Positions 4,399 through 47,440 of a DNA stretch of 64,000 bases are shown one piece after another. The position numbers and the translations under genes were made by a program. Under the pieces are notes generated by a model. That model was given only the letters and a program-made list of their open reading frames with translations. It was not told the DNA's origin and did not search any database. Each line of letters starts with the position of its first letter. The first letter of the stretch is position 1. Source of the stretch: an uncultured Phycisphaerae bacterium (GTDB lineage Bacteria; Planctomycetota; Phycisphaerae; SM23-33); NCBI GenBank assembly GCA_963760365.1, contig CAVXDC010000004.1, positions 27,452-91,451 on the forward strand, given 5' to 3'.

Positions 4399-4419
4399 GG
4401 TCTTGGCGCTCTCCGTCAG

Positions 4420-4437: not shown

Positions 4438-4552
4438 TAGTTAGGGCAAATCCTATCATCGCGGCGCGAGAGGAACAAGTCTCCGTCCCAGGAACCTTGC
4501 GCTCCCAACCACCCCGCGCTTTCCAGGGGTTTAGCGATGGTACAATCATCGC

Positions 4553-11169: not shown

Positions 11170-12375
11170 TCAACTCGCCAACCACCTTCGAACCCACGGG
11201 ATGGCTTTGGTACTATCCCAGCGGTGGCCGCCGTGGAACACGTCGAACTCCAGGCGATCCGGGCAGCCCAGTACCTGGTACGCCTGGCGGGCGATGTCCA
11301 CCTGGGGCTGGACGTTGGCTACGCCTTCCGGGCCGGAAAGCTTGTCTTCGTCACCGGTCTGGACCAGCAGCGGTCTAGGCGCGATCAAGGCGGCCAAGTC
11401 GCCAAGCTCCAGGTACTCCCACAAGTGCGGCACCATGTTGCACGGGCAGTTGTGCTTGTTGAACAGCAGCGGGGCGGCCACCGGGTGAAGGTAGCCGCTG
11501 ACGACCACGCACGCCGGCCGCTCGTCCACGACACTCAGGGCCAGGCTCTGCCAGCCCCCGCCGCTGAAGCCCACGCAGCCGATGCGGTCAGGCCGAACGT
11601 CGTCACGGGCCTGAAGGTGGTCCACCAGGCGCACCAAGTCGAAGGCGTGCATGCCGATCACCGAGATGCCCATCGGCAAGCCGACCATTTGAAGATAGGT
11701 GCAGGAGCTTTGCGTGGGGCTCTTGCGAGCGTCGGCCTCGCGACGCTGACCGAAGCCGCGGGCGTCGGGACAAAACGCCAACATCCCCTTCCGCGCGAAC
11801 TGCACGCCCATGGCGGCGTTGTTGACTGAGACGTCCGGTGCAGCGTCACCTTCCTCCGCGACGCCAGCGGTGGAGCCTTTTCCACCCCCGTGGCCGTGGC
11901 AGCAGATCACGGCCGGGGCGGGGGCGTTCAGGCCCTTGGGCCGCAGGAGATAAAACGGCATGGTGACGTCCGGCTCAACGTCGATCAGCCAGAGCTCGCG
12001 CATGAAATCACCGCAATCCACGGCCTGGGTCTGGCGGGGGTTCGGTGGCGTCGGCGTCATGCGGTCGAAACCCGTCAGCTCGATGAACTTGGCCCGGGCG
12101 GCTGAGGTCCAGGCCTTCAACTCCTTGGCCGTCCTAGCCTTCAGGCCCAGACGGCGGGGATGGGCGGCGTAGTAGTCCATCAGGTGCTTGCGGCTGTCGA
12201 AGAAGTCTTTCGTGGATCGTGTAGAAGCCATGTCGATTCTCCTGGCATCGGCGGATGACGAGGACTGAGGCTTCGCGGCCGTGGCGCCCAAGGCCAGGGA
12301 AGCGCCCTTGGCTGCGCTCAGGCCCACCGCGGAGAGGGCGGCCTTTAAGAAGCCGCGCCGAGTCATATCTTGCAT
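11170..12375 (-). CDS. Tat-signal alpha/beta hydrolase (dienelactone hydrolase/acetyl-xylan-esterase-like)
   Basis: Twin-arginine signal MTRRGFLKAALSAVG and nucleophile elbow GCVGFSGGGW. The ORF is intact. The start could be 12375 or 12366. Confidence 0.7.
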   Translation of the reverse strand: MQDMTRRGFLKAALSAVGLSAAKGASLALGATAAKPQSSSSADARRIDMASTRSTKDFFDSRKHLMDYYAAHPRRLGLKARTAKELKAWTSAARAKFIELTGFDRMTPTPPNPRQTQAVDCGDFMRELWLIDVEPDVTMPFYLLRPKGLNAPAPAVICCHGHGGGKGSTAGVAEEGDAAPDVSVNNAAMGVQFARKGMLAFCPDARGFGQRREADARKSPTQSSCTYLQMVGLPMGISVIGMHAFDLVRLVDHLQARDDVRPDRIGCVGFSGGGWQSLALSVVDERPACVVVSGYLHPVAAPLLFNKHNCPCNMVPHLWEYLELGDLAALIAPRPLLVQTGDEDKLSGPEGVANVQPQVDIARQAYQVLGCPDRLEFDVFHGGHRWDSTKAIPWVRRWLAS

Positions 12376-12464
12376 ATCACGCACACCAACTACCCCGGCC
12401 CAAAATAACCGGGAACTTGACCGGAGCTGAAAACCATCAGACGTTTCGGGGCTACGAAATTCAA

Positions 12465-29911: not shown

Positions 29912-30708
29912 TTAGTCACTTATTAAAATCTCAGCGAAGAAGTCCTTCATCGCCTGCCAGGATCGCCGGTCTGCCTTGGCGTTGTACGCGACGTTCTTTG
30001 AAGGATCGTCGCCCGAGGCGGGGTTCGTAAAACTGTGGACGGCCCCGCCGTAGAGGACGACCTGGTAATCCACTTTACCTTGCGCATCTCGTCCCGGAAG
30101 GCCTCCACCTGCGACATCGGCACGCTGCGGTCGTCCGCACCCGTACACACCAGCACCGAGCAACGGATGTTCTTGGCCTCGGCCGGATCAGTCGCGTCGA
30201 GCCCTCCGTGGAAGCTCACCACGCCGGCGATGTCAGCCCCACTGCGGGCCAGTTCCAGCACCACCGTGCCGCCGAAGCAGTAGCCGATGGCGGCGATGCG
30301 CTTGGGGTCCACGCGCGGGTTGGACCGGACGGCTTCCAGCGCCGCGGTGATTCGCTGGCGCATGAGCTTGCGGTCCGATCGGAACTTCCCGGCCAAGTCT
30401 CCGGCTTGCTTGGCGTCCTTGGCTAGCACGCCTTTGCCGTACATGTCCACGGCGAAGGCGACGTAACCCAGCTCCGCCAGTTGGCGGGCACGGCCTTTGG
30501 CATAGTCGTTCAGGCCCCACCACTCGTGCACCACCAACACCAGCGGCCGGGGGGCCTTGGCCGACTCCTCGTAGGCCAGAACACCTTCCAGGACCGTCTG
30601 TCCGTCTTTGTACTCCACGGCCTCTGTTTTGATGGCCGCCAGCGCCGAGGTGGCCATAATGGCCACGGCCGCCCCAACGGCCATCGAGGACATCATGATT
30701 CCGCCCAT
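29912..30708 (-). CDS. dienelactone hydrolase family protein (secreted), one apparent frameshift near 30078
   Basis: It has a signal peptide, then LVLVVHEWWGLNDY and the nucleophile context IGYCFGG. The C-terminal GKVDYQVVLYGGAVHSF lies in ORF 29912-30163, and restoring one G joins the frames. Confidence 0.8.
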
Positions 30709-33637: not shown

Positions 33638-33679
33638 AAAATAAAATGCAAGGTTGGATGGACGCAGGTTGTGGAAACG

Positions 33680-34120
33680 ATGAGTACTGAATCACATCCC
33701 AGCCCATCTTCAGCAGAAACGGAAGGTATCGGCTCGATCAGCAGTCCGGCTAAAAGTGCTGAGAAGTTCTCATCGTCATCAGCCGGTCTCATCGGGACTG
33801 GCAGCGGTTCGAGGGCCGGACCGCCGCGACGCCAGAGACCGCCGAAGCTCTATCGGATCGGCGAGGTCGTGGACTACTCCGGCGTCAGCAGGCAGACCAT
33901 CCACAACTACGCCACGATGGGTCTGATCCGCGAGAGCCGCTGGACGCACGGCGGGCATCGGCTGTTCGATGAGTCCGTGTTCGAGCGGCTGGACTGCATT
34001 GCGGAGATGAAGGCTGCCAACAAGTCGCTTCAGGAGATTCGGGATCACTTCGCCCAATTGGATGGGCAGCGCGACGGCTTGGCGGCGGCGCAGGAGCCTC
34101 GAGACACAAGGTCACCGTGA
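33680..34120 (+). CDS. MerR-family transcriptional regulator
   Basis: YRIGEVVDYSGVSRQTIHNYATMGLIRESRWTHGGHRLFDESVFERL is a MerR-type winged HTH. A Ser-rich N-terminal extension precedes it. Confidence 0.8.
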   Translation: MSTESHPSPSSAETEGIGSISSPAKSAEKFSSSSAGLIGTGSGSRAGPPRRQRPPKLYRIGEVVDYSGVSRQTIHNYATMGLIRESRWTHGGHRLFDESVFERLDCIAEMKAANKSLQEIRDHFAQLDGQRDGLAAAQEPRDTRSP

Positions 34121-34154
34121 CGGACTCCGAGGCCATGGTCATGGAGGACTGGAC

Positions 34155-36056
34155 GTGACAGGGAATGTGATAGAAATCCTCGACCGAGTACGGTCGCGCG
34201 CCGCCGCCATGAGCCGCCGAAGCCGGTGGATCGCAGGGTTGTTAGCCGGAACGGTGCTGCTGGGCGCCTTGTGGCTGGCCGTCGCGGGTAGGGGGGCGGA
34301 AATGGTTCCCCTGGACACGCACGACCTGAGTTCCGCAGACCTTACTGCCGTTCAGGGGGTGCTTGCGGATCGCGGCATTTCGTGCCAGCTCACCTCCGGA
34401 AGACTCTCGGTCTCCCCCAAGCACTTGGCAGCGGCAAGAGAGATCGTCGCGCAGCTCACCAAGCAGCGAAACGACGCCACCGAATCGCTGGCGGCGCTGG
34501 CCAGGGAGGACGACATCTGGCGGACGGCCGCCCAGAACGACAAGCGCTGGCAGGCCGCCAAAATGGCCACCCTCAGCCGGCTGGTGGAGACGTTTCCCTC
34601 GGTGGCCTCAGCCACGGTGCTGTACGAGCCCGGCAGTCCGCGCGGCCTGGGCAGCGCCGGCCAGGAACCCACCGCGGCCGTGCGCGTCTCGATGAGGACC
34701 GGCGCGACGCTGACGCACTCGGTCGCGCTGGCCATCGCGGAGCTGGTCTCTGGCAGCATCGCGGGCATGAGCTGCCGGCACGTGCGGGTCGTGGACGCCA
34801 GCGGCCAAAGCTACCGCTTCGATACCGAGCCGGGCAATGAGGACAAGGCCCTGCAACACCGGCGCGAAATCGAGACGTATTATCACGAAAAAATCCACAC
34901 CGCCCTGAACTACATCGACAAGGTGGTGCTTGCCGTCTCGGCCATCGGGAAGGACGATCCAGCCGCCGAACTAGCCGTCTCGGTATCTGTGCCGCGGAGC
35001 TACCTGGCCGCCGTCACCCGGGGAGGCCGGGGTGATCCATCCACCGCCGATCAGGCGCTAGCCAAGATTCGCCAAGCGGTTCTGGCCGCCGCCGACAAGC
35101 CTTGCCAGGTCAAGGCCGACTGGTACTACGACACCGAGCCTGCCACACTGGCCGAGGCGTCCGCGTCTGGGAGCGGGACGTTCGGCTGGAGCGGTGTGCT
35201 GGTCGTCGCCGGCCTAGCTGCCGGCTGCGGCGCAGGTTCAGCGCTGCTGGTCCACCACATCGTGCGGCGTCGATCCAACCGTATCAGGCAGGGGTCGGAC
35301 GCTCCCGGCGGGGCGGAAATCACCGAAGGTGGGGTCGGTAGCCGTGAGGCGCAGGAGGCGGACAGGCCTTGGGATTTCCTGAAAAAGCTCACCACCGATG
35401 AGACCGTTTCCCTGGTTGCCTTCGAGCATCCGCAGACCATCGCGATCGTCCTGGGGCAGCTTGAACCGGCAAGGGCCGCGGCGGTGCTGACGGGTCTAAG
35501 CGAGGAAACCCAGGCCACCGTTGCCCGGCGCGTGGCCGTTCTGCACCAGGTCTCCCCCGTGGTGATCGTCGAGGTCGGCCGCACCTTGGCAGACCGCGCC
35601 GCCAACCTGACCAAAGGTCAACCGCCGGCGGCGGGGACCGAAGGGCGGATGGCCGAGATCCTCCGCCACGCCGGTTATGCCACCGAGAAGGTGGTGCTGG
35701 CCGCCTTGGCCGGCCAGTCGCCCTCGCTGGTGGAGGCCATTCGCCAGCGGATCTTCAGCTTCGAGGACATCGCCCAGTTGCCGACCGATCGCCTGCGCCC
35801 TGCGCTTGCCCACGTGGACAGTGCGGAGCTTGCGGTGGCCCTGCGAACGGCCGGGGAGGACGTCAAGGCAAAAATCTTTTCCGCGATGCCGGCTGAGGCC
35901 TCGCGTCGCGTGCGGGAAGAGATGGAGCAGATGGTCCCAGTCCGGTTGAGCGAAGTCGAGGCCGCCCAGCAGCGGGTGGCCGAGGCGGTGCGCCGTGCGG
36001 AGAGCGGGGAGTATCTCTCCGAGTCGGCCCGCCAGGAAAGGCAACTGCTGGCCTGA
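34155..36056 (+). CDS. fliF-fliG: flagellar M-ring/rotor fusion protein: short FliF fused to FliG middle and C-terminal domains
   Basis: The N-terminal part has TM1 (WIAGLLAGTVLLGALWLAVAG) and YscJ/FliF ring-building motifs (LTAVQGVLADRGISCQL..., TAAVRVSMRTGATL...VRVVDASGQSY). TM2 follows (WSGVLVVAGLAAGCGAGSALLV). About 50 residues later come FliG_M (EHPQTIAIVLGQLEPARAAAVL) and FliG_C (...MPAEASRRVREEMEQM). It is one uninterrupted ORF, with a GTG start preceded by GGAGGA. Confidence 0.75.
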   Translation: MTGNVIEILDRVRSRAAAMSRRSRWIAGLLAGTVLLGALWLAVAGRGAEMVPLDTHDLSSADLTAVQGVLADRGISCQLTSGRLSVSPKHLAAAREIVAQLTKQRNDATESLAALAREDDIWRTAAQNDKRWQAAKMATLSRLVETFPSVASATVLYEPGSPRGLGSAGQEPTAAVRVSMRTGATLTHSVALAIAELVSGSIAGMSCRHVRVVDASGQSYRFDTEPGNEDKALQHRREIETYYHEKIHTALNYIDKVVLAVSAIGKDDPAAELAVSVSVPRSYLAAVTRGGRGDPSTADQALAKIRQAVLAAADKPCQVKADWYYDTEPATLAEASASGSGTFGWSGVLVVAGLAAGCGAGSALLVHHIVRRRSNRIRQGSDAPGGAEITEGGVGSREAQEADRPWDFLKKLTTDETVSLVAFEHPQTIAIVLGQLEPARAAAVLTGLSEETQATVARRVAVLHQVSPVVIVEVGRTLADRAANLTKGQPPAAGTEGRMAEILRHAGYATEKVVLAALAGQSPSLVEAIRQRIFSFEDIAQLPTDRLRPALAHVDSAELAVALRTAGEDVKAKIFSAMPAEASRRVREEMEQMVPVRLSEVEAAQQRVAEAVRRAESGEYLSESARQERQLLA

Positions 36057-36068: not shown

Positions 36069-36858
36069 ATGGCACGGATTATCAAAGCTGACCAGGATGT
36101 GGACGGTACAACCACGGCGGTGTTGAGATTGACGGATTTCGTCGCCGAGGCGCGGGCGGTGGTACTGGAGGCCCGCAAGGAAGCGGCGAGGATCGTGGCC
36201 GAGGCCCGCGGCAAGGCCGAGCAAATCGAACAAGCGGCCACCCAACACGGCTACCAGGAAGGTTTTGCCCGCGGCCGAAACGACGGCTACAGCGACGGCC
36301 AACAGGCAGGATCGCGCCAAGGGCTGGAGGTTTCCGCCGGGGCGGCCGCCCAGGCGCTGTCCTGCGCCCAGCGGGTGGCCGAGGAGCTCGGCGCCGCCCG
36401 GAGCGAGCTGGTGGAGCAGGCCCGGCAAGAGCTGCTGGACCTGGCGCTGGCGATCGCGGAGCGGATTGTGGGCACCGTGGCGACCCGGGACGTCGCCGCC
36501 GCCCAGGCCAACCTGGTCAAGGTGCTGGAAATGGCCGGTTACGCCAAGGCAATCACGATCAAGGTCAATCCCGACCAGCTCCAGGCCTTGCGGGAACACT
36601 GCCACAAGGCCGTCGAGGCGCTGGCCATCAAAGGTCGCGTGGAACTGGTGGCCGATGAGACGCATCAGCCCGGGTGGCGTGAAAGTACTCACCGGCGCCG
36701 GGCAGATCGACGCGACTGTCGAAACGCAACTGGCCCACGTCGTCGGGGCCCTGCTCGGCTCGGCGGCCCAGACAGAACCGCCGGGACATTATGAGCCGTA
36801 CGGCCACGACGAGTCGCATGAAACTCCAAAGACAGGGACATTTTACGGAGCGGCATGA
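36069..36858 (+). CDS. fliH: flagellar assembly protein FliH, one apparent frameshift near 36660
   Basis: It has a coiled-coil N-terminus (EARKEAARIVAEARGKAEQIEQ...GYQEGFARGRNDGY) and a C-terminal domain (LLDLALAIAERIV). The tail SPGGVKVLTGAGQIDATVETQL lies in ORF 36265-36858. The stop overlaps the fliI start (ATGA). Confidence 0.7.
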
Positions 36859-38229
36859 AACCCTTTGAGACCTACCGGCAGGTGTTGCGTCACGTTCAGC
36901 CCCTGGGCGTCAGCGGGCGGGTGAGCGCCGTTCGCGGCCTGACGGTCAGCGTGTCGGATTTCCCCGCCCCCATCGGCGCCACTTGCCGAGTGGAGGGCAT
37001 GGGCGAGGCCGGTGGAGGCCCGCGTGGTGGGCTTTGCCGATGACCGGACACTGGTGATGCCGATGGGCGCGATGACCGGCATCTGCCGCGGCGCGCGTGT
37101 ACGGCTGACCTCCTGCCGCCAGACGGTGGCCCTGGGCGAGGGGGTCTTGGGACGGGTACTGGACGGCACCGGCCGGCCCATCGACGGGCGCGGACCGATC
37201 GCCGCCCGGGAGCATCTGCCCGTCTGGCCGGAACCGCTCGCGGCCATGCGGCCGACGGCGGATCAGCCAGCCGCTGGGCACCGGCATCCGGGCAATCGAC
37301 GGGCTGCTGACGGTCGGCCGGGGCCAGCGGATGGGCATCTTCTCCGGCTCGGGCGTGGGCAAGAGCGTCCTTCTGGGCATGATCAGCCGCTTCACCGCCG
37401 CCGACGTGACCGTCATCGGCCTGATCGGCGAGCGCGGCCGCGAGGTCCGCGACTTCATCGAGCAGGACCTGGGCCCCGAGGGGCTGGCCAAAAGTCGGTG
37501 GTGGTCGTCTCCACCAGCGACGAGCCGCCGCTGCTCCGCGTCCAGGCCGGGGCGGTCGCGGCGGCCGTGGCTGAATACTTCCGCGACCGCGGGGCCGACG
37601 TGCTGCTGCTGGTGGACTCCCTGACCCGCCTGGCCACGGCCCAGCGGCAGATCGGTCTGGTGGCCGGCGAGCCGCCCACCACCAAGGGCTACACCCCCAG
37701 CGTGTTCAACCTGCTGCCGCAACTGCTGGAGCGCAGCGGGCGGACCGAGACCGGCTCGATCACCGGCTTCTACACCGTCCTGGCCGAGGGCGACGACCTC
37801 AGCGAGCCCGATCAGCGACGCCGTGCGGGCCGTCACCGACGGGCACATCCACCTGTCGCGCGAGCTGGCCAACCGCGGGCAGTACCCGGCCATCGACTGC
37901 CTCCGCAGCGTCAGCCGCGTGATGATCGACCTGGTGGATGCCCCGCACCGGGCCTAGCCGCCAGGGAACTCAACCGCCTGATGACCCTCTACGGCCAGGT
38001 GGAGGATATGGTCGGCATCGGCGCCTACCGGCCGGGGGCGAGCCTCGACTTCGATTTGGCCATCCGGGCCATGCCGCTGATCCGGGCCTTCTTGACCCAG
38101 GGTATCAGTGAGCAGGAGGCCTTGGAGAACACGCACGGCAAACTGCTGGGACTCCACCAGCAGATCATGGACATTCGGGCATCTCTTGAAGGCGCCGCTG
38201 GGCATGGCGGCGATCGGAGGACGCAATGA
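36855..38229 (+). CDS. fliI: flagellum-specific ATPase FliI, five apparent frameshifts as assembled
   Basis: The stitched pieces give a complete FliI: [30 protein letters not shown] (Walker A at 37346-37366), [11 protein letters not shown] (Walker B), and [15 protein letters not shown]...[12 protein letters not shown]. Frame changes lie near 37010, 37255, 37495, 37808 and 37955. Confidence 0.9.
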
Positions 38230-38681
38230 ACGCAGACAACCAGGACCATCGTCTGTCGGTGCTATGGAAGGTGCGGCGCCAGAGCGAGGACGCTTGCCGG
38301 ATGGCGTTCGAGTCAGCCCGCACCCAGGCCGATTCCGCCGAGGTGTATGTGCGGCGGCTGAGGAACCTTTTGGAGGTCCACACCGCCGAGGCCCGCTCGG
38401 TCATGCTGAACGACCCGGCCACGATGGCGCGATACCGTCAATCGGCGGCGGAACTGGGCGCCGCCCTGGTCGATGCCACACGTTTTCTGGCCGAGGCACG
38501 CTTGAAGCTGGAACGCCGTCGGGCGGAGCTTGAAGAGGCGATGCGCCAAAGAAAGGCGGCTGAGGCGCTCCAGCAACGAGAGGCGACGGCGGCGGCAGCG
38601 GCGCAGAACCGCCAGGAAAACCGAACTTCCGAAGAACTGCACGCGGCGCGCTCGGCTGCCGAGACCACCGCGCGACCCTAG
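38226..38681 (+). CDS. fliJ: flagellar export chaperone FliJ-like coiled-coil protein
   Basis: A 151-aa all-helical, charged protein directly after fliI (ATGA overlap). The assignment rests on position and composition. Confidence 0.55.
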   Translation: MNADNQDHRLSVLWKVRRQSEDACRMAFESARTQADSAEVYVRRLRNLLEVHTAEARSVMLNDPATMARYRQSAAELGAALVDATRFLAEARLKLERRRAELEEAMRQRKAAEALQQREATAAAAAQNRQENRTSEELHAARSAAETTARP

Positions 38682-38699
38682 AGGCGGTAAAGGTCCATC

Positions 38700-38933
38700 A
38701 TGAGTGATCAGGTCAACGTGCGACTGGAGCTGGGCAGACAGATGATCCCGGCTGCCGAGGCCTGGCGTTTGGACGTCGGCGGCGTGGTGGAGCTGGACCG
38801 TCGCATTGAAGACCGCCTGGACATCTATGCCGATGGCCGGCTCATTGCGCGCGGCCAGGCCGTCGTCGTCGCGGGCAAGCTGGCTGTCCGGGTCGAGGAA
38901 ATCGTCTCCCCGCATGTAAGGTCCGTTGGATGA
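38700..38933 (+). CDS. fliN: flagellar motor switch protein FliN (SpoA domain only, 77 aa)
   Basis: VNVRLELGRQMIPAAEAWRLDVGGVVELDRRIEDRLDIYADGRLIARGQAVVVAGKLAVRVEEIV matches the FliN/SpoA pattern. Confidence 0.8.
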   Translation: MSDQVNVRLELGRQMIPAAEAWRLDVGGVVELDRRIEDRLDIYADGRLIARGQAVVVAGKLAVRVEEIVSPHVRSVG

Positions 38934-39520
38934 AACCGACGATGCCATCCCCATTCCGATGGGCTATTGCGGCCATGACGGTGGCCGTCTTCGGCGCCGT
39001 TTGGGCAATGGGTTCGGAGAATCAATCATCTCCCTCCACCGCCACAGTCGCCACGAGCACCGCGGCATCGGCGGACACTCTTGAAAGAAAGCCCCTGGAA
39101 CGCGGTGGCCAAGGCGGCGGCATTGGCAACCTGTGGGACTGGGTGCAGCCTCTGGCGGCTTTAGCGATCGTGGTGGCGTTGATCTTTCTGCTGCGAGCGG
39201 TGCTGAAGCGCCTGGGGCATAGCGGGCTAGTGGCCGCAGGTGGGCGGGGCGTGCAGGTGTTGTGGCGTTCGCGCCTGAGCGGTCGGTGCGAGCTCTGTCT
39301 GGTCCAATGGGGCAAGCGGCTGCTGCTGGTGGGGATCGGAGCCGATGGGCCGGTAAAGCTCAGCGAGATTACCGACCCCCAGGAGGCTTCGGCCATGCTC
39401 GCTGAGCAGGGCAGCTCCGCCCCGGTACGCAGCGGGGCGGTCCGCGAAGTGGCTGAGAAAATCCGCTCCCGCTTGGCGAGTGATGAGGCTGTGGAAAAAG
39501 GGCGCAAAGCTGATGGGTAA
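38930..39520 (+). CDS. fliO: FliO-like flagellar biosynthesis protein
   Basis: It has a single central TM (LAALAIVVALIFLLRAV) followed by VQVLWRSRLSGRCELCLVQWGKRLLLVGIG. It sits between fliN and fliP and overlaps both. Confidence 0.55.
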   Translation: MKPTMPSPFRWAIAAMTVAVFGAVWAMGSENQSSPSTATVATSTAASADTLERKPLERGGQGGGIGNLWDWVQPLAALAIVVALIFLLRAVLKRLGHSGLVAAGGRGVQVLWRSRLSGRCELCLVQWGKRLLLVGIGADGPVKLSEITDPQEASAMLAEQGSSAPVRSGAVREVAEKIRSRLASDEAVEKGRKADG

Positions 39521-40346
39521 GGACACGTTCCATCTTGGCCGGGAACAAAGGACCCAGGCGGCCTATTTTATGATTACCGTCGCCGTTGTGGCCATCCTGC
39601 TGTCGGTCGGGACGACCTGGGCGGCGGGTGGTGAGAAGACGGCGTTGCCCGCCTCTGGACCGATGGGGGCGGGGAATGTCTTGCCGGACCTCCAAAGTCC
39701 GACCGCCGCATCCGGCCTGGCGCAATGGCTGCTGGTGATTACCGTCCTGGCTGTCGCGCCGGCGGTGGCGGTGATGGTGACGTGCTTCACGCGGATCATC
39801 GTGGTGCTTGGGTTGCTGCGGCAGGCGCTGGCGACCCAGCAACTCCCGCCCAATCAGGTCCTCTTCGGCCTGGCGCTGCTGATGACGCTGGTGGTGATGG
39901 CCCCGACCTTCACGGCCGTGCACCAGGACGCCTTGGCGCCCTACCTCGCCGGCAAGATGAGCCGCCAGGACGCCTGGCAAGCGGGCCAGAAGCACGTGCG
40001 GGCCTTCATGATCCGCCAGATCACCTCCGCCGGCAACGAGCAGGATGCGTATTTGTTCCTGGACAAGGACCTGGCCGGCAAGAGCGACCTGACCTGGAGC
40101 GATGTGCCGACGCTGTCGCTGATCCCGGCCTTTGCGATCAGCGAGCTGAAGGTGGCGTTTCTGATCGGCTTCCGCATCTATCTGCCGTTTCTGGTCATCG
40201 ACATGCTCGTGGCCTCGATGCTGATCTCGATGGGCATGCTGATGCTGCCGCCGGTGCTGATTTCCATGCCGTTCAAACTGCTGATGTTCGTGCTGGCCGA
40301 CGGGTGGCACCTGGTGGTCGGCACGCTGATGAAAAGCTTTCAGTAA
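39513..40346 (+). CDS. fliP: flagellar export apparatus protein FliP
   Basis: MVTCFTRIIVVLGLLRQALATQQLPPNQVLFGLALLMTLVVMAPT...FAISELKVAFLIGFRIYLPFLVIDMLVASMLISMGM is canonical FliP. Confidence 0.92.
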   Translation: MGKDTFHLGREQRTQAAYFMITVAVVAILLSVGTTWAAGGEKTALPASGPMGAGNVLPDLQSPTAASGLAQWLLVITVLAVAPAVAVMVTCFTRIIVVLGLLRQALATQQLPPNQVLFGLALLMTLVVMAPTFTAVHQDALAPYLAGKMSRQDAWQAGQKHVRAFMIRQITSAGNEQDAYLFLDKDLAGKSDLTWSDVPTLSLIPAFAISELKVAFLIGFRIYLPFLVIDMLVASMLISMGMLMLPPVLISMPFKLLMFVLADGWHLVVGTLMKSFQ

Positions 40347-40369
40347 GGACAGTAAGGTTAAGGACGCGG

Positions 40370-40627
40370 ATGGACGCAAGCCAGGCCATCGACCTCGCCC
40401 GCCAGGCGGCCCTGCTGACGTTGGTGGTGGCCGCTCCGGTGCTGGGGGTGGGGTTGATTGCGGCGCTGCTGGTAGGCGTGCTCCAAGCGGCCACACAGGT
40501 GCAGGAGCAGACGCTCAGCTTCGTGCCGAAGATGGCGGCTATGGTGCTGACGGCGCTCGTGGTCGGGCCTTGGATGCTGTCGCGCGTCGTGGAGTTCGCC
40601 CAGGACATGTTCGGCCAACTGCCGTGA
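40370..40627 (+). CDS. fliQ: flagellar export apparatus protein FliQ
   Basis: An 85-aa protein, MDASQAIDLARQAALLTLVVAAPVLGVGLIAALLVGVLQAATQVQEQTLSFVPK, with a typical FliQ hairpin. Confidence 0.9.
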   Translation: MDASQAIDLARQAALLTLVVAAPVLGVGLIAALLVGVLQAATQVQEQTLSFVPKMAAMVLTALVVGPWMLSRVVEFAQDMFGQLP

Positions 40628-40652
40628 ATCGCGGAACGCGGCGAAAGATGCA

Positions 40653-41435
40653 ATGAACGACTTCTCTTTCAACTCGGCCTGGTGGTACACGGCGGTGCTG
40701 GTGATGACCCGTTGCGGCGGCATTTTCCTGGTCGCACCGGTGTTTGCCCACGCCTCCGTGCCGGTCCGACTGCGCCTGGGGATGAGCATCGTGATGGGTC
40801 TGGCCGCCGTGGGACGCCTGGCCAACATGGTCACCCCGCCGGACCATTGGGCGGAACTGGCCCCCGTGCTGGCCGTCGAGGTGGCTATCGGTGCAGCCAT
40901 CGGGTACCTGGCGCGGTTGGTGTTCGTCGGCGTGGAACTGGCCGCCATGCACATCAGCCAGCAGATGGGCCTGGGCCTGGCTGAGGTGTTCGACCCGTCG
41001 AAGGAAGAAGTCTCCGAAGCTGTCAGTCGGTTGCTCCAGATGACGGCGTTAGTGATCTTCCTGGCCATCGGAGGGCACCGGACGCTGATTCAGGCGGTTC
41101 TGGGCACGTTCGAGCTGCTGCCGCCTGGTTTGAAGGGATTACCCTCCTTTGGGGTGGCGATGCAGGCAACAACGGTGATGCTGGCGATGAGTTTCCTGTT
41201 GGCGCTGAAGCTGGCCGCCCCGGTGCTGGCAGCGATCCTGATAATGACCGCTGCGGCTGGGCTGATCCAAAAAACCATGCCGCAGCTCAACATCCTGACG
41301 GTCGGGTTTCCGGTGCGAGCGATGCTGGGCCTGGCGGTGCTGGCCATGAGCCTGGCGATGTTGGCGCCGCTGCTGGAGTCTGCGGTGGGAATCCTGACGC
41401 GGCAGTGGGCGGTGGCGTTCCAGGTTGTGCGGTGA
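40653..41435 (+). CDS. fliR: flagellar export apparatus protein FliR
   Basis: A polytopic 260-aa protein between fliQ and flhB with FliR-like helices (TRCGGIFLVAPVF...). Confidence 0.85.
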   Translation: MNDFSFNSAWWYTAVLVMTRCGGIFLVAPVFAHASVPVRLRLGMSIVMGLAAVGRLANMVTPPDHWAELAPVLAVEVAIGAAIGYLARLVFVGVELAAMHISQQMGLGLAEVFDPSKEEVSEAVSRLLQMTALVIFLAIGGHRTLIQAVLGTFELLPPGLKGLPSFGVAMQATTVMLAMSFLLALKLAAPVLAAILIMTAAAGLIQKTMPQLNILTVGFPVRAMLGLAVLAMSLAMLAPLLESAVGILTRQWAVAFQVVR

Positions 41436-41447: not shown

Positions 41448-42233
41448 GTGGCGGAATCCAGAGAACAGATAGGTGAGCGGACCGAACTTCCGACCCCTCT
41501 GCGCCTGGCAGAGGCCAGGCAACGCGGTTGGGTTCCCCGGAGCAGTGAGCTCGTCTCGGCCGCGGTGATGCTGGCGGCCGTGGGGGCGGCGGCGATGCTG
41601 GGCGATGGACTGCTCCAGGCCGCCAGGCGTTTGACAGCGGCGATGCTCACTGAGGCAGGAACTGTCTCCTGCACCTGGAGCGGCCAGGTCGCCGCGGCCG
41701 CCTGGGTCCTGGCCGGCAAGGCGGCGCTGATGCTGCTGATCGTGATCGCCGCAGCCATCGCTGCCAACATCGTGCAGTTTGGCCTGCTGTTTTCCGGTGA
41801 ACCGGTGCAATTGGACTTCGCCAGGCTATCGCCGGCCGCAGGGCTGAGAAAAATCCTGTCGCTTCGCTCCGTCGTGCGGGCGGGGTTTGGCGTCGTCAAG
41901 GTGCTGATGACGGCAGGCATCGCGGCCCTAGCCGTGCGGGCGGCGATATCGCAACGGCTATCAGCCGCCAGCCTGTCAGCCGCCGACTTGGCCGCTACGA
42001 TCGGCCGGCAGGTGCTTGCCGCGGCCTTGTCGATTGCCGCGGCGCTGCTGGCCGTGGCGTTGCTGGACCTGCTCTACCAACGGTGGCAATACCGCCAAGA
42101 CTTGAAGATGACCCGCCGGGAGTTCCTTGAGGACTTACGGAAGACCGAAGGCGACGAACGGATGCGGCAGCGGAGGCGGCATCTGCGGTCCCATCTCCTC
42201 TCCCGTCGTCAAGAAACGCAACGGAGCGGATAA
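41448..42233 (+). CDS. flhB: flagellar export protein FlhB, lacking the C-terminal NPTH/FlhB-CC domain
   Basis: GTG start. AESREQIGERTELPTPLRLAEARQRGWVPRSSEL is followed by four TM helices and the linker KMTRREFLEDLRKTEGDERMRQRRRHL. The ORF stops at 42233, 9 nt before the flhA ATG, about where NPTH would begin. Confidence 0.85.
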   Translation: MAESREQIGERTELPTPLRLAEARQRGWVPRSSELVSAAVMLAAVGAAAMLGDGLLQAARRLTAAMLTEAGTVSCTWSGQVAAAAWVLAGKAALMLLIVIAAAIAANIVQFGLLFSGEPVQLDFARLSPAAGLRKILSLRSVVRAGFGVVKVLMTAGIAALAVRAAISQRLSAASLSAADLAATIGRQVLAAALSIAAALLAVALLDLLYQRWQYRQDLKMTRREFLEDLRKTEGDERMRQRRRHLRSHLLSRRQETQRSG

Positions 42234-42242
42234 ACCCCCGCG

Positions 42243-44384
42243 ATGCAAGGACGCGCGATGTCGAAAACGTCGACCATGCAGAAACTTCAAGCCGTCGTCG
42301 GCGCCATGGCACGATATCAGGGTCTGATCCTGCCCGTGGCGGTCGCGGCGATGGTGCTGGTGATCCTGGTGCCGCTGCCACCGGGACTGATGAACGTCCT
42401 GCTGATGGGCAACATCGCCCTGGCGGTCGTCATCCTACTGATGACGGTTTTCGTAGCTGGTCCGCCGGAGTTCAGCGTGTTTCCTTCGCTGCTGCTGGGG
42501 GTCACGCTGTTGCGATTGGTGCTGAACCTGGCCGCCACGCGGCTGATCCTGACCTGTGGCGCCGACGGACGGACGATCACCCAGGCCCAGGGGGCCGCGG
42601 GGGCGGTACTGTGGTCCTTCGGGCAGTTCGTCACGTCCGGATCGCTGGCGGTGGGCATCGTCCTGTTTGCGATCTTGGTGATCGTGCAGTTGGCGGTGGT
42701 GACCAAGGGCGCCGCCCGCATCAGCGAGGTGGCCGCCCGGTTCGTCCTGGACGCCATGCCGGGCAAGCAGATGGCCATCGACGCCGACCTGGCCGCCTCG
42801 CTGATCACGCCCGAGCAGGCTCACCAGCGACGCCAGACCATCGCCCGCGAGGCGGACTTCTACGGAGCAATGGACGGGGCGTCCAAGTTCCTTCGCGGCG
42901 ATGCCGTCGCCGCCATCCTGATCCTGCTGGTCAACGTCCTGGGCGGGTTGTACGTTGGTCTGGGACAATACGGATGGAATTTGTCCACGACCGCCGAGCT
43001 GTTTGTCCGCCTGACCATCGGGCTGGGGTTGGTGACGCAGATCCCGGCCTTGCTGGTCGCGATTGCGGCGGCGCTGATGGTCTCGCGGAGCAACATCGAG
43101 GCCGATCTGGGCAGGCAAGTTGTCTCGCAGCTCACCGCCAGGCCTGTCGCCTTGGTGATTGCGGCAGCGCTGCTGGCGGCAATGATGATCACCTCGCTGC
43201 CGAAGCTGCCTTTGCTGCTGCTGGGCGGCGGTTGTCTGGGCCTGGCGCTGGTCCTTCGGCGCCGCAGGCAGGTCGCGCCCGCCAGCGAAGAACGCGACAA
43301 ACCAGCACCGCCCAGCGCCCCGCCCGTTCAGAACGTCCGCAATCTGCTGGCCGTGGACGCGATGCGGATCGAACTGGGCTTTGCCTTGATTGGCCTGGTG
43401 GACTCCCCTCAGCCAGACGGTCTGCTGAACCGCATCGCCGCCCTTCGCCGCCGGATCGCCGCGGAACTCGGCCTGGTCCTGCCGCCCATTCGCATCCGCG
43501 ACAACATGGAGATGGACTCCCGCGACTACGCCCTCTGCATCCGCGGCGCGAAGGTCGCCTCGGGCAAACTGTACCCCCGTCAGGTCATGGCCATCGGCTC
43601 GACGGACCTGGCCGAAGCCCACGGAGAAGAAGCCGCCAGCGTCCTGATGGGTCGGCCGATCACGGAACCGACCTTCGGCGGTTGGGCGATGTGGATCAAT
43701 CCTTCGCAGCGGGGGAGGGCTGAGACGATGGGCTATGCGGTGGCCGACTGCACCGACGTGCTGATGATGCACCTGGCCGAGACTATCCGCCGCCACGCCG
43801 CCGAACTCCTCGGCCGACAGCAGGTGGCGGAGCTTCTGGACAACCTCAAGGCCACCGCTTCCAGCCTGGTGGCCGAAGTTACCGCCAGGCTGACCCCCGC
43901 GCAGATTCACAAGGTGCTCCAGAACCTCCTGCGGGAGCGCGTATCCATCCGCGACCTGGAGGCGATCCTGGAGTCCCTGTGCGACGCGGCCTGCCAGACC
44001 AGCCAGGTGGAAGCGCTGACCGAGCACGTCCGCTCGGCCCTCGGCCGATCGCTGTGCCAACAGTTCTGCGATCGCGACGGCAAGCTGTCATGCGTTCATC
44101 TGTCGCCGGCCTTGGAGCAGGAGCTGGGCGCCTACGTCGCCGAAGGACCGGCTTACAGCACCGCGGGCATCCCGCCGGACGTGGGCAAGGCCGTCTCGAA
44201 GGCTCTGGGCGACGGCCTGGTGTCTCTTGCCAAGCAAGGTCGTCGGCCGGTGGTGGTCTGTGCCCCACAGATCCGGCCGGTGATCCGCAAGCTGCTGGCC
44301 GGCGCTGTACCCGAGGCGGTTGTTCTGGGCTACAACGAGATCAATTCGGTGAAAGTGGAGTCGCTTGCCAGTTTAGGGATTTGA
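42243..44384 (+). CDS. flhA: flagellar export apparatus protein FlhA
   Basis: Intact 713-aa ORF. It has the N-terminal TM domain (FPSLLLGVTLLRLVLNLAATRLIL..., FVLDAMPGKQMAIDADL) and the cytoplasmic C-domain. An alternative ATG lies at 42258. Confidence 0.95.
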   Translation: MQGRAMSKTSTMQKLQAVVGAMARYQGLILPVAVAAMVLVILVPLPPGLMNVLLMGNIALAVVILLMTVFVAGPPEFSVFPSLLLGVTLLRLVLNLAATRLILTCGADGRTITQAQGAAGAVLWSFGQFVTSGSLAVGIVLFAILVIVQLAVVTKGAARISEVAARFVLDAMPGKQMAIDADLAASLITPEQAHQRRQTIAREADFYGAMDGASKFLRGDAVAAILILLVNVLGGLYVGLGQYGWNLSTTAELFVRLTIGLGLVTQIPALLVAIAAALMVSRSNIEADLGRQVVSQLTARPVALVIAAALLAAMMITSLPKLPLLLLGGGCLGLALVLRRRRQVAPASEERDKPAPPSAPPVQNVRNLLAVDAMRIELGFALIGLVDSPQPDGLLNRIAALRRRIAAELGLVLPPIRIRDNMEMDSRDYALCIRGAKVASGKLYPRQVMAIGSTDLAEAHGEEAASVLMGRPITEPTFGGWAMWINPSQRGRAETMGYAVADCTDVLMMHLAETIRRHAAELLGRQQVAELLDNLKATASSLVAEVTARLTPAQIHKVLQNLLRERVSIRDLEAILESLCDAACQTSQVEALTEHVRSALGRSLCQQFCDRDGKLSCVHLSPALEQELGAYVAEGPAYSTAGIPPDVGKAVSKALGDGLVSLAKQGRRPVVVCAPQIRPVIRKLLAGAVPEAVVLGYNEINSVKVESLASLGI

Positions 44385-44387
44385 GCC

Positions 44388-45583
44388 ATGGAAACGAAGA
44401 CTTACTGTGCCCCCTCGATGGCCGAGGCGCTAGCCGAGGTGAAGCGAGACCTCGGCCGGGACGCCGTGATTATGCACACCCGCTACTTCCGCAAGGGTGG
44501 GTGGCTGGGCATCGGTGGCCGGCCGATGTGGGAGATCACCGCTTCCTCCCAGGTGAACGTCCCGCTACGCCTGCCTTCAGGCCGATACGTGCCTGTGCCT
44601 CCCTCCGACGTCCTGGCCTTGCCTTCCGGAGGTCTCGCAGCCGCGGACGCCGGCACCACTGACACCCTCAGCGAGGCGCTATGCCAGAGGATGGGAGAGA
44701 TCCACCACATGGTGGCTAGGCTGCTCAGCCGCACGAGCGAACCTTTGTCCGGGAAAGCGACCCTGGCCGTGCCGGAGACCCTTCCCGAAGAACTCACCTC
44801 CTGGCGTTCGCACCTCTTGCGTCAGGAACTGGCTGAAGAAACGGTGAACCAATTGATGGAGCAGCTTCGCAAGGACCTGACGGCCGAGGAGATGACCCGC
44901 GCCGCCACGGTCCGCCAACGCCTCGTGGACCTGATTTCCGCGCCATCCCCACGGCCGACGTGAACGTGCCGTCGGCGACGGGTCGGCCCCGCGTGATTGT
45001 CCTGATCGGTCCGACCGGCGTCGGCAAGACCACAACCATCGCCAAGCTGGCCGCCCGCTACAAGCTCGCTGCCAACCGGCGGGTAGGACTGATTACCATC
45101 GACACGTATCGCATCGCGGCGGTCAACCAGCTCAAGACCTACGCCCAGATTATCGAGGTGCCGCTGCGGACGGTGCTCAGGCCGGCGGAGCTGTCTGAGG
45201 CAATCGCCTCCATGGCTGAGCAGGACTTGCTGCTCATCGACACCGCCGGGCGCAGCCCCGCCGACGCCCCGCGGCTACGTCAGATGCAAAGCTTCCTGGA
45301 AGCGGCGCAGGCGGACGAGGTGCACCTGGTCGTGTCGGTGACGGCGGGGCCCTCCTGTGCCGCACGGGTCATCGAGAACTTCATGCCTCTGGGCGCCAAC
45401 CGGTTGATCCTATCGAAGCTTGATGAGGCGGGGACCTTTGGTATGCTGCTGAACATCGCCTCCGCCGCCAAAGCCGCGCTGAGCTTCGTGACTACCGGCC
45501 AGGAAGTTCCGGACGATATCGCCCCGGCCAATCCCCGGCACCTGGCGGAACTGATTGTGGGAGAAGAGACGTATGGCGCTTGA
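44388..45583 (+). CDS. flhF: flagellar biosynthesis GTPase FlhF, one apparent frameshift near 44940
   Basis: The N-terminal B-domain is METKTYCAPSMAEALAEVKRDLGRDAVIMHTR. The SRP-type G-domain has VIVLIGPTGVGKTTTIAKLA, DTYRIAA and LLIDTAGRS. The two ORFs (44388-44963 and 44960-45583) differ by one frame. Confidence 0.85.
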
Positions 45584-46421
45584 AGACCAGGCTGGCAAAC
45601 TGCGTCGGTTAATGCAGCAGGCGCGACGCACGCGCACCATCGCCGTGACCAGCGGCAAAGGCGGCGTTGGCAAGAGCAACGTGGCATTGAACCTGGCCAT
45701 CCTACTCTCGGCGGCGGGCCATCGCGTGGCCCTGGTGGACGCCGACCTGGGACTGGCCAACATCGACGTCCTGGTAGACGTGAACGTGCGGAGCAACCTA
45801 TCGCACGTTATCGCCGGGCTGAAGCGGCTGGAGGAAATCGTCGTGGACTTGCCCAGCGGCGTGCAGTTCGTCCCCGGCGCCAGCGGGCTGACCCGGCTTG
45901 CTCGTCTGTCGGACTTTCAACGGGCTCAACTGCTGAAGGACTTGACCGCCCTGGAGGCCGACAACGACATTATCGTCATCGACACGGCCGCGGGCATCGG
46001 CCCGGACGTCGTCCAGTTGTCCATCAGCGCTGACAACGTCCTGGTCGTGACCACGCCGGAACCCCCGGCCGTCACGGATAGCTACGCCATGACCAAAGTC
46101 CTGGTCCGCAGCGGCTACAACGGACACATCAGCCTGCTGGTCAACTTCGTGGCCAACCGCCATGAGGCCCGCACGACTTTCGCGCGGATCTCTGGCGTCG
46201 CACGGCAGTTCCTTGGCACCGTTGTGTACGACGCTGGCTACGTCCTGACGGATCCCAAAGTCCCCGAGGCCGTCCGAAAACGCGAACCCGTGGTGCTGGC
46301 ATACCCAAAATGCCCAGCCAGTCAGTGCCTGGTGGCATTGGCGACAAAGCTGTCCGCCGGGGGTGCCCTTGTATCCAGAAAAGAAGGTTTTTTCAGCAGG
46401 GTCGCCAACTGGTTTGCATAA
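45573..46421 (+). CDS. flhG: MinD/ParA-type ATPase FlhG (FleN/YlxH)
   Basis: It has the deviant Walker A TSGKGGVGKSNVALNLA. It lies directly after flhF with an 11-nt overlap. Confidence 0.88.
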   Translation: MALEDQAGKLRRLMQQARRTRTIAVTSGKGGVGKSNVALNLAILLSAAGHRVALVDADLGLANIDVLVDVNVRSNLSHVIAGLKRLEEIVVDLPSGVQFVPGASGLTRLARLSDFQRAQLLKDLTALEADNDIIVIDTAAGIGPDVVQLSISADNVLVVTTPEPPAVTDSYAMTKVLVRSGYNGHISLLVNFVANRHEARTTFARISGVARQFLGTVVYDAGYVLTDPKVPEAVRKREPVVLAYPKCPASQCLVALATKLSAGGALVSRKEGFFSRVANWFA

Positions 46422-46511
46422 CCATTTATTCTGAAAAGAGTTGGGGGCATGGATGCCACCAAAAAATATCATCTTCCTCTTAAAACCCTTAGGAAAAACA
46501 AGGATTTTACC

Positions 46512-46539
46512 TTGACATATCTGATGGTATGCGTAGAAT
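46512..46539 (+). promoter_or_regulatory. sigma70-type promoter for fliA (TTGACA-N16-TAGAAT)
   Basis: Near-consensus hexamers were read directly in the AT-rich 227-bp spacer between flhG and fliA. Confidence 0.5.
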
Positions 46540-46648
46540 AGAAAAAATGCATAAAATACATAATATGGGTAATTCAATTGCAAATACACACTGAGGACAG
46601 CAAAGACTGGCTGCAAAACGCGATCAAGGACGATCCAAAGGAGCCAGC

Positions 46649-47440
46649 ATGAAGGTCAACGAAACTAAGACCAGCACGGATCAAGTCCAACAGTGGTGGA
46701 AAGCGTACCGCAAAGACAGGGATGAGGAGGCCAGGAACCGCCTGATGGAGCACTATCTGCCGATCGTCAAGTATACGGCCGAGAGACTGTACTCCAAACT
46801 GCCGAATGAAGTGGACATGGACGATCTGGTGTCCACCGGCATCTTCGGGCTTATGGACGCCATCTCGGCCTTTGACGAGAAGCGCGGAGTAAAGTTCGAG
46901 ACCTATTGCGCGCCTCGAATCCGCGGGGCGATGCTGGACGAGCTGCGCTCAATGGACTGGGTGCCTCGGCTAGTCCGCAGCCGGGCCCACAAGCTCAATG
47001 AGGCCCGTCACGAGCTGGAGGTGCAGCTAGGGCGCCGGCCGGACGATGGGGAGCTAGCCAAGAGGATGCGGATGCCCATGCGGGAGTTCCGCAAGCTCCA
47101 GCGCGACGCTCGCGCCGTGGGGTTGGTCAGCTTGAGCCGCAAGTGGTTTGAGACCGATTCGCACAAGGACGTCCGCGAGATCGACGTGCTGGAGGACAAA
47201 AAAAGCGACGATCCGCTTCGGACGGCGACCCGCAAGGACATCAAGGACCTGATGACCCGCGGACTGAGCCGGGCCGAGCGGCTGATTATCATCCTGTACT
47301 ACTTCGAAGAAATGACCATGAAGGAGATCGGGGAGACGTTGGACTTATCCGAAAGCCGCGTCAGCCAGATGCACTCGGCTATCCTGACCAGGCTGCGGCG
47401 CCAACTGGAGAAGCGACGCAAGGAACTCTCGACCGTGTGA
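46649..47440 (+). CDS. fliA: flagellar sigma factor FliA (sigma-28/WhiG family)
   Basis: Region 2 is LVSTGIFGLMDAISAFDEKRGVKFETYCAPRIRGAMLDELR. Region 4 is LSRAERLIIILYYFEEMTMKEIGETLDLSESRVSQMH. Confidence 0.9.
   Translation: MKVNETKTSTDQVQQWWKAYRKDRDEEARNRLMEHYLPIVKYTAERLYSKLPNEVDMDDLVSTGIFGLMDAISAFDEKRGVKFETYCAPRIRGAMLDELRSMDWVPRLVRSRAHKLNEARHELEVQLGRRPDDGELAKRMRMPMREFRKLQRDARAVGLVSLSRKWFETDSHKDVREIDVLEDKKSDDPLRTATRKDIKDLMTRGLSRAERLIIILYYFEEMTMKEIGETLDLSESRVSQMHSAILTRLRRQLEKRRKELSTV

Follow-up and report, generated by a model that had tools for sequence, protein, structure and literature searches.

A single-chain FliF–FliG protein without the FliG N-terminal domain at the head of a stripped-down flagellar export operon in uncultured Phycisphaerae

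How is a flagellar rotor held together when the junction between its two rings is missing? The contact between FliF's C-terminal tail (FliF_C) and the N-terminal domain of FliG (FliG_N) is considered the essential link that sets the stoichiometry of MS-ring to C-ring. The question is raised by a 64,000-nucleotide (nt) stretch of DNA from an uncultured Phycisphaerae bacterium (Planctomycetota; GenBank assembly GCA_963760365.1, contig CAVXDC010000004.1, positions 27,452 to 91,451, forward strand), referred to below, at its full length, as the window. It carries a gene, fliFG, whose product is a single chain: FliF comes first—its MS-ring part without the beta-collar—then a short flexible tether in place of the FliF_C/FliG_N interface, and then the middle (FliG_M) and C-terminal (FliG_C) domains of FliG, here together FliG_MC. 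Of this identity and architecture we are very nearly certain, and the sequence signatures of the protein's family suggest that motor function has been changed or lost.

The open frame extends from 34062 to 36056 on the forward strand. Read from the GTG at 34155, which is also the start of a database protein of 633 amino acids (aa) (P0001) and agrees with the alignment of homologues, it encodes 633 aa: the single 633-codon FliF–FliG frame that an earlier, sequence-only reading of the window had described. That reading also found no fliG between fliFG and fliH, and indeed fliH begins at 36069, just 12 nt past the stop codon. The features of the gene are listed here by position and strand, with the evidence in brackets (TM, transmembrane helix; RBM, ring-building motif; pLDDT, predicted local distance difference test).

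34155..36056, forward: fliFG, one open reading frame (ORF) with a GTG start, encoding FliF plus the middle and C-terminal domains of FliG (Pfam, TIGR models, homologue alignment)
34224..34289, forward: TM1, aa 24–45, RWIAGLLAGTVLLGALWLAVAG (sequence; AlphaFold2 helix 21–44)
34332..34502, forward: RBM1-like domain, aa 60–116 (AlphaFold2 secondary structure; profile collinear with Salmonella FliF 19–256)
34527..34796, forward: RBM2, aa 125–214, with the family signature DIWRT..Q..KRWQAAKM (Pfam YscJ_FliF; invariant columns; Foldseek matches to FliF RBM2)
34836..35126, forward: RBM3-like domain without the beta-collar insertion, aa 228–324 (MAFFT against canonical planctomycete FliFs; PF08345 absent)
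Directly 5' of SVSVPRSYL (34980–35006), forward: deletion point within RBM3 (MAFFT alignment)
35187..35252, forward: TM2, aa 345–366 (sequence; AlphaFold2 helix 346–380)
35253..35366, forward: linker, basic then acidic, predicted disordered, in place of FliF C-tail and FliG_N (pLDDT <50 at aa 378–402; no FliG_N profile match)
35364..35612, forward: FliG_M (ARM_M) (Pfam; PDB profile match; family alignment)
35424–35435, forward: EHPQ of FliG_M (sequence)
35520–35537, forward: VARRVA, with the conserved Arg of FliG_M (sequence, alignment)
35706..36002, forward: FliG_C (Pfam; PDB profile match; family alignment)
35748..35771, forward: MFxF-type hinge, RIFSFEDI (alignment to T. maritima FliG)
35886–35933, forward: torque-helix equivalent in FliG_C, MPAEASRRVREEMEQM (alignment)
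Directly after the torque-helix equivalent, forward: invariant (G/V)PVRLSEVEAAQQ in FliG_C (alignment)

EHPQ lies exactly where it was first placed, and TM2, first given as about 35181–35265, has merely been trimmed. Profile searches account for both halves of the chain (Pfam positions are in a 664-aa numbering of the product, AlphaFold2 positions in the 633-aa numbering). YscJ_FliF (PF01514) matches residues 87–249 with 75.3 bits against a cut-off of 24.4, bearing out the FliF-like character claimed for the N-terminal part; FliG_M (450–517, 69.5 bits) and FliG_C (549–647, 99 bits) both exceed their gathering scores. YscJ_FliF_C (PF08345), the profile of RBM3 with its beta-collar, has no Pfam match in the product; it does match the canonical FliF of an unfused planctomycete locus, L032. 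The FliG model TIGR00207 covers profile positions 107–327 of 338, and, because the match starts at 107, the first ~105 positions of FliG are without counterpart. Neither of the equivalog cut-offs is reached: TIGR00207 scores 161.2 bits vs 226.7, and TIGR00206, for FliF, 23.1 bits vs 129.75. As a FliF, then, the protein has the YscJ_FliF domain between two TM helices and lacks the FliG_N-binding tail, the canonical LxGxELDxxxxRxQ...WI having no counterpart; as a FliG, it has FliG_M and FliG_C, EHPQ..R and the MFxF hinge, and lacks the FliF-binding FliG_N and the charges of the torque helix. No second fliF or fliG was found in the window by tblastn with canonical planctomycete FliF and FliG as queries. 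A pattern-based contig scan returned one fliG-bearing locus for each fused-lineage assembly among its best 80 matches, which is weak evidence against a second, canonical fliG.

The same order of parts emerges from an AlphaFold2 model built from 17 homologues (mean pLDDT 70.9): TM1 (21–44), three alpha/beta RBMs (60–116, 125–214 and 228–324), TM2 (346–380), a low-confidence stretch (378–402), and then all-helical FliG_M (408–486) and FliG_C (495–616). In Foldseek and PDB profile searches the N-terminal part matches FliF MS-ring chains and the C-terminal part matches FliG_MC crystal structures (1LKV, 38% identity); the family profile finds T. maritima FliG_MC at E = 5.5e-67. In the family a median of 50 aa separates EHPQ from the end of TM2, and about 22 of these lie in the first FliG_M helix. 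The ~30 residues that are left are rich in Arg, Ala, Gly and Pro, unconserved and of low confidence, and it is this linker that stands where FliG_N and the FliF docking tail are missing, much as the sequence-only reading had proposed.

The fusion is no peculiarity of one contig. A word-indexed search returned 44 homologues at 33–81% identity, 41 of them with FliF and FliG domains and most of these 594–683 aa long; the exceptions are two proteins consisting of the FliF part only and an unrelated 948-aa sensor kinase. Those that are named come from metagenome-assembled genomes of Phycisphaerae or Planctomycetota. When 1.84 billion cluster representatives were searched exhaustively with a profile, the count rose to well over 100 full-length representatives at the 50% identity level. 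Both halves are present in 159 of the 184 proteins collected, and 140 of the 159 are at least 560 aa long; the junction itself recurs in ~140 full-length proteins, drawn from assemblies of JGI, NCBI, ENA and Logan, and is independent of the window's own assembly. Invariant columns run through both halves of the family alignment (RWQA..M, PRS, E..Q and PVR..VEAA, for example), which indicates purifying selection on FliF and FliG parts alike. fliFG is a genuine gene under selection, from an uncultured lineage of Phycisphaerae. One apparent unfused relative, P0044 (395 aa) with a 164-aa FliG_C ORF, was set aside: its contig is riddled with frameshifts, and the overlapping pieces make up one broken fused gene.

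What the fusion has given up can be read from its nearest sequence relatives, the canonical fliF and fliG of other planctomycetes. Many Phycisphaerae and other Planctomycetota have adjoining, separate genes for FliF (~505–575 aa) and FliG (~340 aa) (loci L012–L036; P0156 and P0171, for example). FliG_MC identity to these is ~40–44%, and FliF is collinear with theirs in RBM1, in RBM2 and in each half of RBM3. In MAFFT alignments fused and canonical FliFs run together from TM1 through the first half of RBM3, at which point the fused proteins have a clean gap of ~70–90 residues, and alignment resumes at the (S/A)V.VPRSY strand; the short periplasmic part remarked on from the sequence is this deletion. 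The missing insertion is the counterpart of the beta-collar of Salmonella FliF structures. In Salmonella the collar encircles the proximal rod. The canonical tail after TM2 is wholly missing, too. Set beside the FliF (~530 aa) and FliG (~340 aa) of the nearest unfused kind, the fused proteins lack the RBM3 insertion, the cytoplasmic FliF C-tail, and FliG_N with most of helix_NM, whereas the closest unfused relatives (P0156-type FliF; P0171 and P0174 FliG) have collar, tail, FliG_N and a normal torque helix. One 520-aa member of the fused family (L022, 9974–11533) goes further: RBM3 is gone, so that RBM1 and RBM2 are followed by TM2, and the region linking FliG_M to FliG_C is shortened; its SctJ-like periplasmic part is still fused to FliG_MC.

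The stator contact has changed as well. We aligned 71 fused proteins with the FliG_MC of T. maritima and with 23 FliGs from canonical planctomycete loci. The canonical set was gathered by a pattern that lies C-terminal of the torque helix, so comparing the two sets within the helix is not circular. The motifs of the FliG switch are largely kept: EHPQ..R is present at E in 68, H in 55, P in 63, Q in 68 and R in 67 of the 71 fused proteins, and MFxF at M in 40, the first F in 55 and the second F in 67; the window protein has EHPQ, the Arg of VARRVA, and IFSF. The torque-helix charges R281, D288 and D289 (E. coli numbering, reportedly that of Lloyd & Blair and of Zhou et al.) are classically required for torque through contact with MotA. 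At the R281 equivalent the canonical proteins have R in 23 of 23, whereas the fused ones have A (17), S (9), E (8), P (7), R (6), D (5) and others (3.29 bits vs 0 in the canonical set). At the D288 equivalent E is invariant in the canonical set (23/23), against R (20), E (18), Q (8) and others (2.86 bits vs 0), and at the D289 equivalent D (19) or E (4) contrasts with E (39), Q (15), R (7) and others (2.0 bits vs 0.67). The window protein has E at all three. Judged by these columns, the triad is invariant in canonical planctomycete FliGs and unconstrained in the fused proteins.

The rest of the helix has fared differently. Its buried positions (L, A, A, V, M) and the GPVRLSDVEAAQQ that follows are conserved in the fused family, which has gained basic residues at the third and fourth positions past the R281 equivalent. 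Calling this a torque domain, as was done at first, was right as to the fold and most of the sequence; the charged residues of the stator contact are not conserved, and the function implied was perhaps overstated. Other fused families (P0154, P0160–P0175) are mostly without the triad as well, P0160 and P0162 keeping an Arg at the R281 position.

fliFG stands near the head of a conserved operon, the order of which is merR, fliFG, fliH, fliI, fliJ, fliN, fliO, fliP, fliQ, fliR, flhB, flhA, flhF and flhG, with fliA next in the window. The order recurs in 13 further loci, found in JGI, ENA and NCBI assemblies. In the window the genes around fliFG are placed as follows, with frame changes given relative to L001, the related locus whose fliFG product is 81% identical.

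33671..34120, forward: merR, MerR-family regulator (Pfam; conserved upstream position)
36069..36858, forward: fliH, with a 1-nt frame-changing insertion near 36661
36855..38229, forward: fliI, with five frame-changing insertions of 1–2 nt
38226..38933, forward: fliJ (38226–38681) and a minimal, 77-aa fliN (38700–38933)
38930..41435, forward: fliO, fliP, fliQ and fliR, flagellar-type (FliP and FliQ above equivalog cut-offs)
41448..42233, forward: flhB, 261 aa, without NPTH or C-terminal domain, ending ~28 residues past the EGD motif
42243..47440, forward: flhA, flhF (frameshift near 44943), flhG and fliA (FliA/WhiG sigma factor)

The export gate is of the flagellar kind. FlhA scores 714 bits against the flagellar model and 509 against SctV; for FliP, FliQ and FliR, too, flagellar models clearly outscore Sct models, and for FlhB the two are near equal (155 vs 153 bits). 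The sigma factor reaches 257 bits with the FliA/WhiG model against a cut-off of 190. Missing are other genes: no motAB, rod, hook or filament genes and no fliM were found in the window or within 10 kb of the 13 related operons. Canonical loci are otherwise in this respect. In most of them FliE, FlbD, MotA and MotB adjoin fliF and fliG; none of the four occurs in the 14 fused-type loci. The canonical operon of L032 reads merR, TPR, histidine kinase, sigma-54 regulator, an ORF, fliE, fliF, fliG, fliH and fliI, then an ORF, flbD, motA, motB, another ORF, fliN, fliO-P-Q-R and flhB. The fused operon shares with it the order fliH-I-J ... fliN-O-P-Q-R-flhB-flhA, and differs in having one gene for two, FliF without collar and FliG-binding tail, FliG without N-domain and invariant R/E/D triad, no fliE upstream, and no flbD-motA-motB downstream.

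A MerR-family gene lies directly upstream of every fused-type operon for which the flank is available (the window, L001–L011, L022 and L037), and is likely the operon's regulator. Three canonical loci (L012, L032 and L034) also have a MerR homologue, ~8 kb upstream of fliF/fliG, and in L032 it heads the operon.

FlhB has been cut short in most of these loci. In eight of the 10 examined it is 242–271 aa long and without C-domain (the 242-aa example, from L007, reaches the end of its locus), ending ~28 residues past the EGD(P) motif, roughly at the point expected for NPTH autocleavage; elsewhere in the fused-type loci with short FlhB, no FlhB_CC-like sequence was found. In L010 (8907–10007) and L011 (15005–16096) the C-domain is kept, with NPHG or DPHG instead of NPTH, and the frameshift-riddled L003 also holds FlhB_CC-like sequence. 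The canonical FlhB of L032 (19192–20295) has APDG at this place, and the autocleavage switch may be unusual across Planctomycetota.

What might such a protein do? The chain would be inserted by its two TM helices with both termini in the cytoplasm, and RBM1–3, by polymerizing, would surround the FliPQR/FlhB/FlhA gate with a collar-less MS-ring. The ~30-residue linker would suspend exactly one FliG_MC beneath each FliF, fixing the stoichiometry at 1:1 and substituting a covalent bond for the co-folded FliF_C/FliG_N interface. FliG_M should still recruit a FliM-like partner, because it retains EHPQ..R, and stacking of ARM_M on ARM_C would still chain the subunits into a ring; this ring would bear FliN and dock FliH–FliI–FliJ to form a cytoplasmic export platform. 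Taken as a whole, the reading we lean towards, with somewhat better than even confidence, is that a reduced basal body and export apparatus of flagellar type, probably not a standard torque motor, has the fused protein as its ring scaffold. Such a reduced machine would either leave the classical MotA–FliG charge interface unused or not rotate at all, and is possibly centered on export. This reading rests on four observations: the stator-contact triad is unconstrained; the operon, collinear in other respects, has no fliE, hook genes or flbD-motAB; FlhB is without its switch domain; and the beta-collar is gone. These losses fall on the stator contact, the housing of the rod, and the switch from rod/hook to filament substrates, and it is this pattern that favors a reduced apparatus.

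Several observations weigh on the other side. The operon retains flhF, flhG and the FliA/WhiG sigma factor, whose usual roles are in true flagella and in the service of late genes, that of flagellin for one. Conservation of EHPQ..R implies a FliM encoded outside the operon, and if FliM is elsewhere, other flagellar genes could be elsewhere also; planctomycete flagellar genes are often scattered. The fused family conserves the equivalents of E. coli K264 (R in 65 of 71) and R297 (R in 71 of 71), and has R or K in 76% three positions past the R281 equivalent and in 90% at the 287 equivalent, gained basic residues with which a stator that had co-evolved could pair. A separate gene might encode FlhB_CC. 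Cultured Phycisphaerae, furthermore, are motile, swimming by one flagellum (PMC13514998), though the contig scan found none of these among the fused-type matches.

The main rival is an ordinary rotating flagellum with a fused rotor: stators, rod, hook, filament, FliM and the FlhB C-fragment would be encoded at other loci, and the stator would have co-evolved with the re-charged torque helix. In its favor, FliO is present and FlhA, FliP, FliQ and FliR are flagellar-type; EHPQ..R and the MFxF switch hinge are kept, the helix still carries conserved charges, and Salmonella FliF–FliG fusion mutants are flagellated and motile (PMC10941966). An ordinary flagellum must also accommodate, however, R281 and D288 equivalents under no constraint when 23 of 23 canonical relatives keep both, the loss of beta-collar and FlhB_C, and the excision of fliE, flbD and motAB from an otherwise collinear operon. 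We know of no motile bacterium that is without all of these—torque triad, beta-collar, FlhB_C, and fliE/flbD/motAB in the operon. We think this explanation has rather less than an even chance of being right. The reduced apparatus that we favor has precedents. A FliF–FliG_M fusion persists in Chlamydiaceae, which have no flagella (PMC4768692), and rotor proteins without filament genes are encountered in 11% of genomes predicted to be non-motile; the survey of motility loss that reports this makes no mention of fusions or of Planctomycetota (PMC12199754).

Whichever way the motor question goes, a natural experiment is on view: the interface has been swapped for a ~30-residue tether in more than 100 sequence clusters, and this reveals which parts of the junction are dispensable. 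The single chain could also provide a self-contained MS-ring/FliG ring for cryo-electron microscopy. A bolder proposal is one we hold tentatively, thinking it more probably wrong than right. The fused proteins would mark a widespread, undescribed class of non-rotating, flagellum-derived machines in uncultured Planctomycetota, in which a flagellar export gate and a collar-less MS-ring, to which a FliG/FliM/FliN platform is covalently tethered, serve secretion or some other polar function. These machines would share ancestry with the chlamydial FliF–FliG_M/FliI/FlhA remnant, and the graded series from FliF with collar, through FliF without collar, to FliF without RBM3 would resemble the reduction in the direction of an SctJ-type ring that supposedly went along with the emergence of injectisomes. 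If the losses of beta-collar, torque-helix triad and FlhB_C, and of fliE and motAB from the operon, do mean that rotation has ceased, such machines would show, as few systems can, how rotor proteins are employed when there is no motor; the lineage would then be a free-living equivalent of the flagellar remnant of chlamydiae, itself unexplained, and would display in living bacteria how a flagellar basal body can be simplified toward a secretion apparatus.

Two other explanations concern the architecture itself, and both are very improbable. The first is that a divergent FliG_N lies hidden between TM2 and FliG_M, making the protein a full-length FliF–FliG fusion. Pfam does report one FliG_N match, of 34 bits, and a natural fusion that retains FliG_N exists elsewhere (P0154, 838 aa). 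The match, however, falls at 456–514, on top of FliG_M at 450–517, with half its score, FliG_N and FliG_M being homologous ARM folds; the ~30 residues available are compositionally biased and unconserved, with pLDDT below 50; and the PDB FliG alignments to the fused family, like that of TIGR00207, begin near FliG position ~105. On the Pfam overlap, the TIGR00207 range and the low pLDDT we reject a concealed FliG_N, leaving YscJ_FliF, FliG_M and FliG_C without FliG_N, the outcome expected of a Pfam scan from the outset.

The second is that an error-prone assembly created the fusion by a misjoin or a deletion, or that the cluster is one of pseudogenes decaying in this genome. It draws on the many 1–2-nt frame-changing insertions in the window relative to L001 (81–98% identical) but is effectively refuted for the fusion itself, since fliFG is intact and its indels relative to the 81%-identical homologue are all in-frame (3, 3 and 9 nt), both halves have invariant columns, and the same junction occurs in ~140 full-length proteins from independent assemblies of many samples. 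Misassembly and a single-indel origin are both out on these grounds, and the original argument that one indel could not produce the fusion holds good. The frame-changing insertions lie in fliH (~36661), flhF (~44943) and, five times, fliI (~37009, 37252, 37486, 37811 and 37950). They occur, too, in housekeeping genes, Fe-ADH (~25700) and DHDPS (~27110), which makes sequencing error a simpler explanation than decay of the flagellar cluster; the window looks like an indel-prone assembly rather than one with a single decaying cluster. Two +1/+2 pairs of insertions in fliI restore the frame, and a dienelactone hydrolase is divided over two frames (29912–30708, reverse strand).

The rest of the window has no further flagellar genes, and encodes polysaccharide degradation and housekeeping functions instead. 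A GH10 xylanase, a GH31 enzyme, a glucuronyl-esterase-like hydrolase and a periplasmic pectate lyase are encoded in 906–4440, 11170–12384 and 23510–25078, and the host looks like a degrader of plant polysaccharides, which from its gene content would fit a Phycisphaerae of soil or sediment. A 793-aa ORF without Pfam match (5659–8040, forward) occupies the sole stretch of clearly lower GC content (52.7% vs ~64%), and this region may be a foreign insertion.

How does the fused protein compare with systems already known? Other natural FliF–FliG fusions exist outside the window (P0154, P0160–P0170 and P0175). They include the FliG_N-retaining P0154, forms of 715–791 aa with a longer FliF part and no FliG_N, and a 657-aa form labelled Pirellulales; in a quick neighbor-joining tree all fused forms fall in one clade, with long branches and no support values. 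FliG domains turn up in stranger company still: P0165/P0180 (996 aa) strings together FliM, five DUF4116 repeats, FliG_M and two FliG_C, and P0045 (948 aa) combines FliG_N/FliG_M-like domains with HisKA, HATPase and receiver domains, a sensor kinase with FliG-type ARM domains. Both lie outside the window.

With SctJ, the inner-membrane ring protein of injectisomes, the fused family shares a collar-less RBM ring, and in L022, which has no RBM3, an SctJ-like periplasmic part. SctJ differs in being a lipoprotein and in having no FliG domains, and the SctJ model TIGR02544 scores 15–30 bits against a cut-off of 162. No secretin or SctD is encoded in the operon, and FliO is. Membership in the injectisome lineage was rejected, the export-gate components scoring higher against flagellar models (FlhB only marginally so).

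Laboratory fusions offer functional parallels. In the 1992 Salmonella deletion-fusion of Francis et al., the C-end of FliF and about 94 N-terminal residues of FliG were reportedly removed, segments we take to be nearly the same as those lost in the planctomycete fusion, and Thomas et al., in 2001, are said to have described spontaneous or engineered Salmonella FliF–FliG fusions. The Salmonella and Vibrio proteins likewise have a covalent 1:1 link between FliF and FliG and still form rings (PMC10941966; PDB 8z4d). They differ in being mutants or constructs of canonical proteins, with beta-collar, intact torque helix and full flagellar gene set retained, and the Vibrio construct, 945 aa long, also keeps FliG_N.

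The closest natural parallel is found in the Chlamydiaceae, which are non-flagellated and keep a FliF fused to a FliG_M-like domain, its periplasmic region shortened (CT719-type, NF004606; Bergeron 2016, PeerJ, PMC4768692). By that description the junction is of the same type: TM1, a short RBM region without the FliF-specific domain, TM2, a short linker and a FliG_M-like segment, in one natural chain that has neither FliG_N nor a FliF C-tail. The hosts, moreover, are both members of the PVC superphylum. The chlamydial protein is only ~330 aa long, however, with two RBMs, a partial FliG_M at which it ends, and no FliG_C, and its host genomes have few flagellar genes beside an injectisome (PMC4768692). 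The planctomycete protein has three RBMs and complete FliG_M and FliG_C instead, and its gene leads a complete export operon of flagellar type that includes flhF, flhG and fliA. NF004606 gives 24.2 bits with the fliFG product and 22–29 bits with its fused relatives—on the RBM region in some, on the EHPQ region in others—and has no match in three canonical planctomycete FliFs. Against a cut-off of 297 these scores leave fliFG outside that family, and the resemblance is a hint of kinship between the two fusions. The sequence-only reading had known of no description of the architecture. This stands for planctomycetes, for which full-text literature searches found no description of a FliF–FliG fusion, and fails where the chlamydial precedent is concerned; what is new here is the full FliG_C, the spread of the fusion through free-living Planctomycetota, and its place in a complete but stripped-down flagellar export operon.

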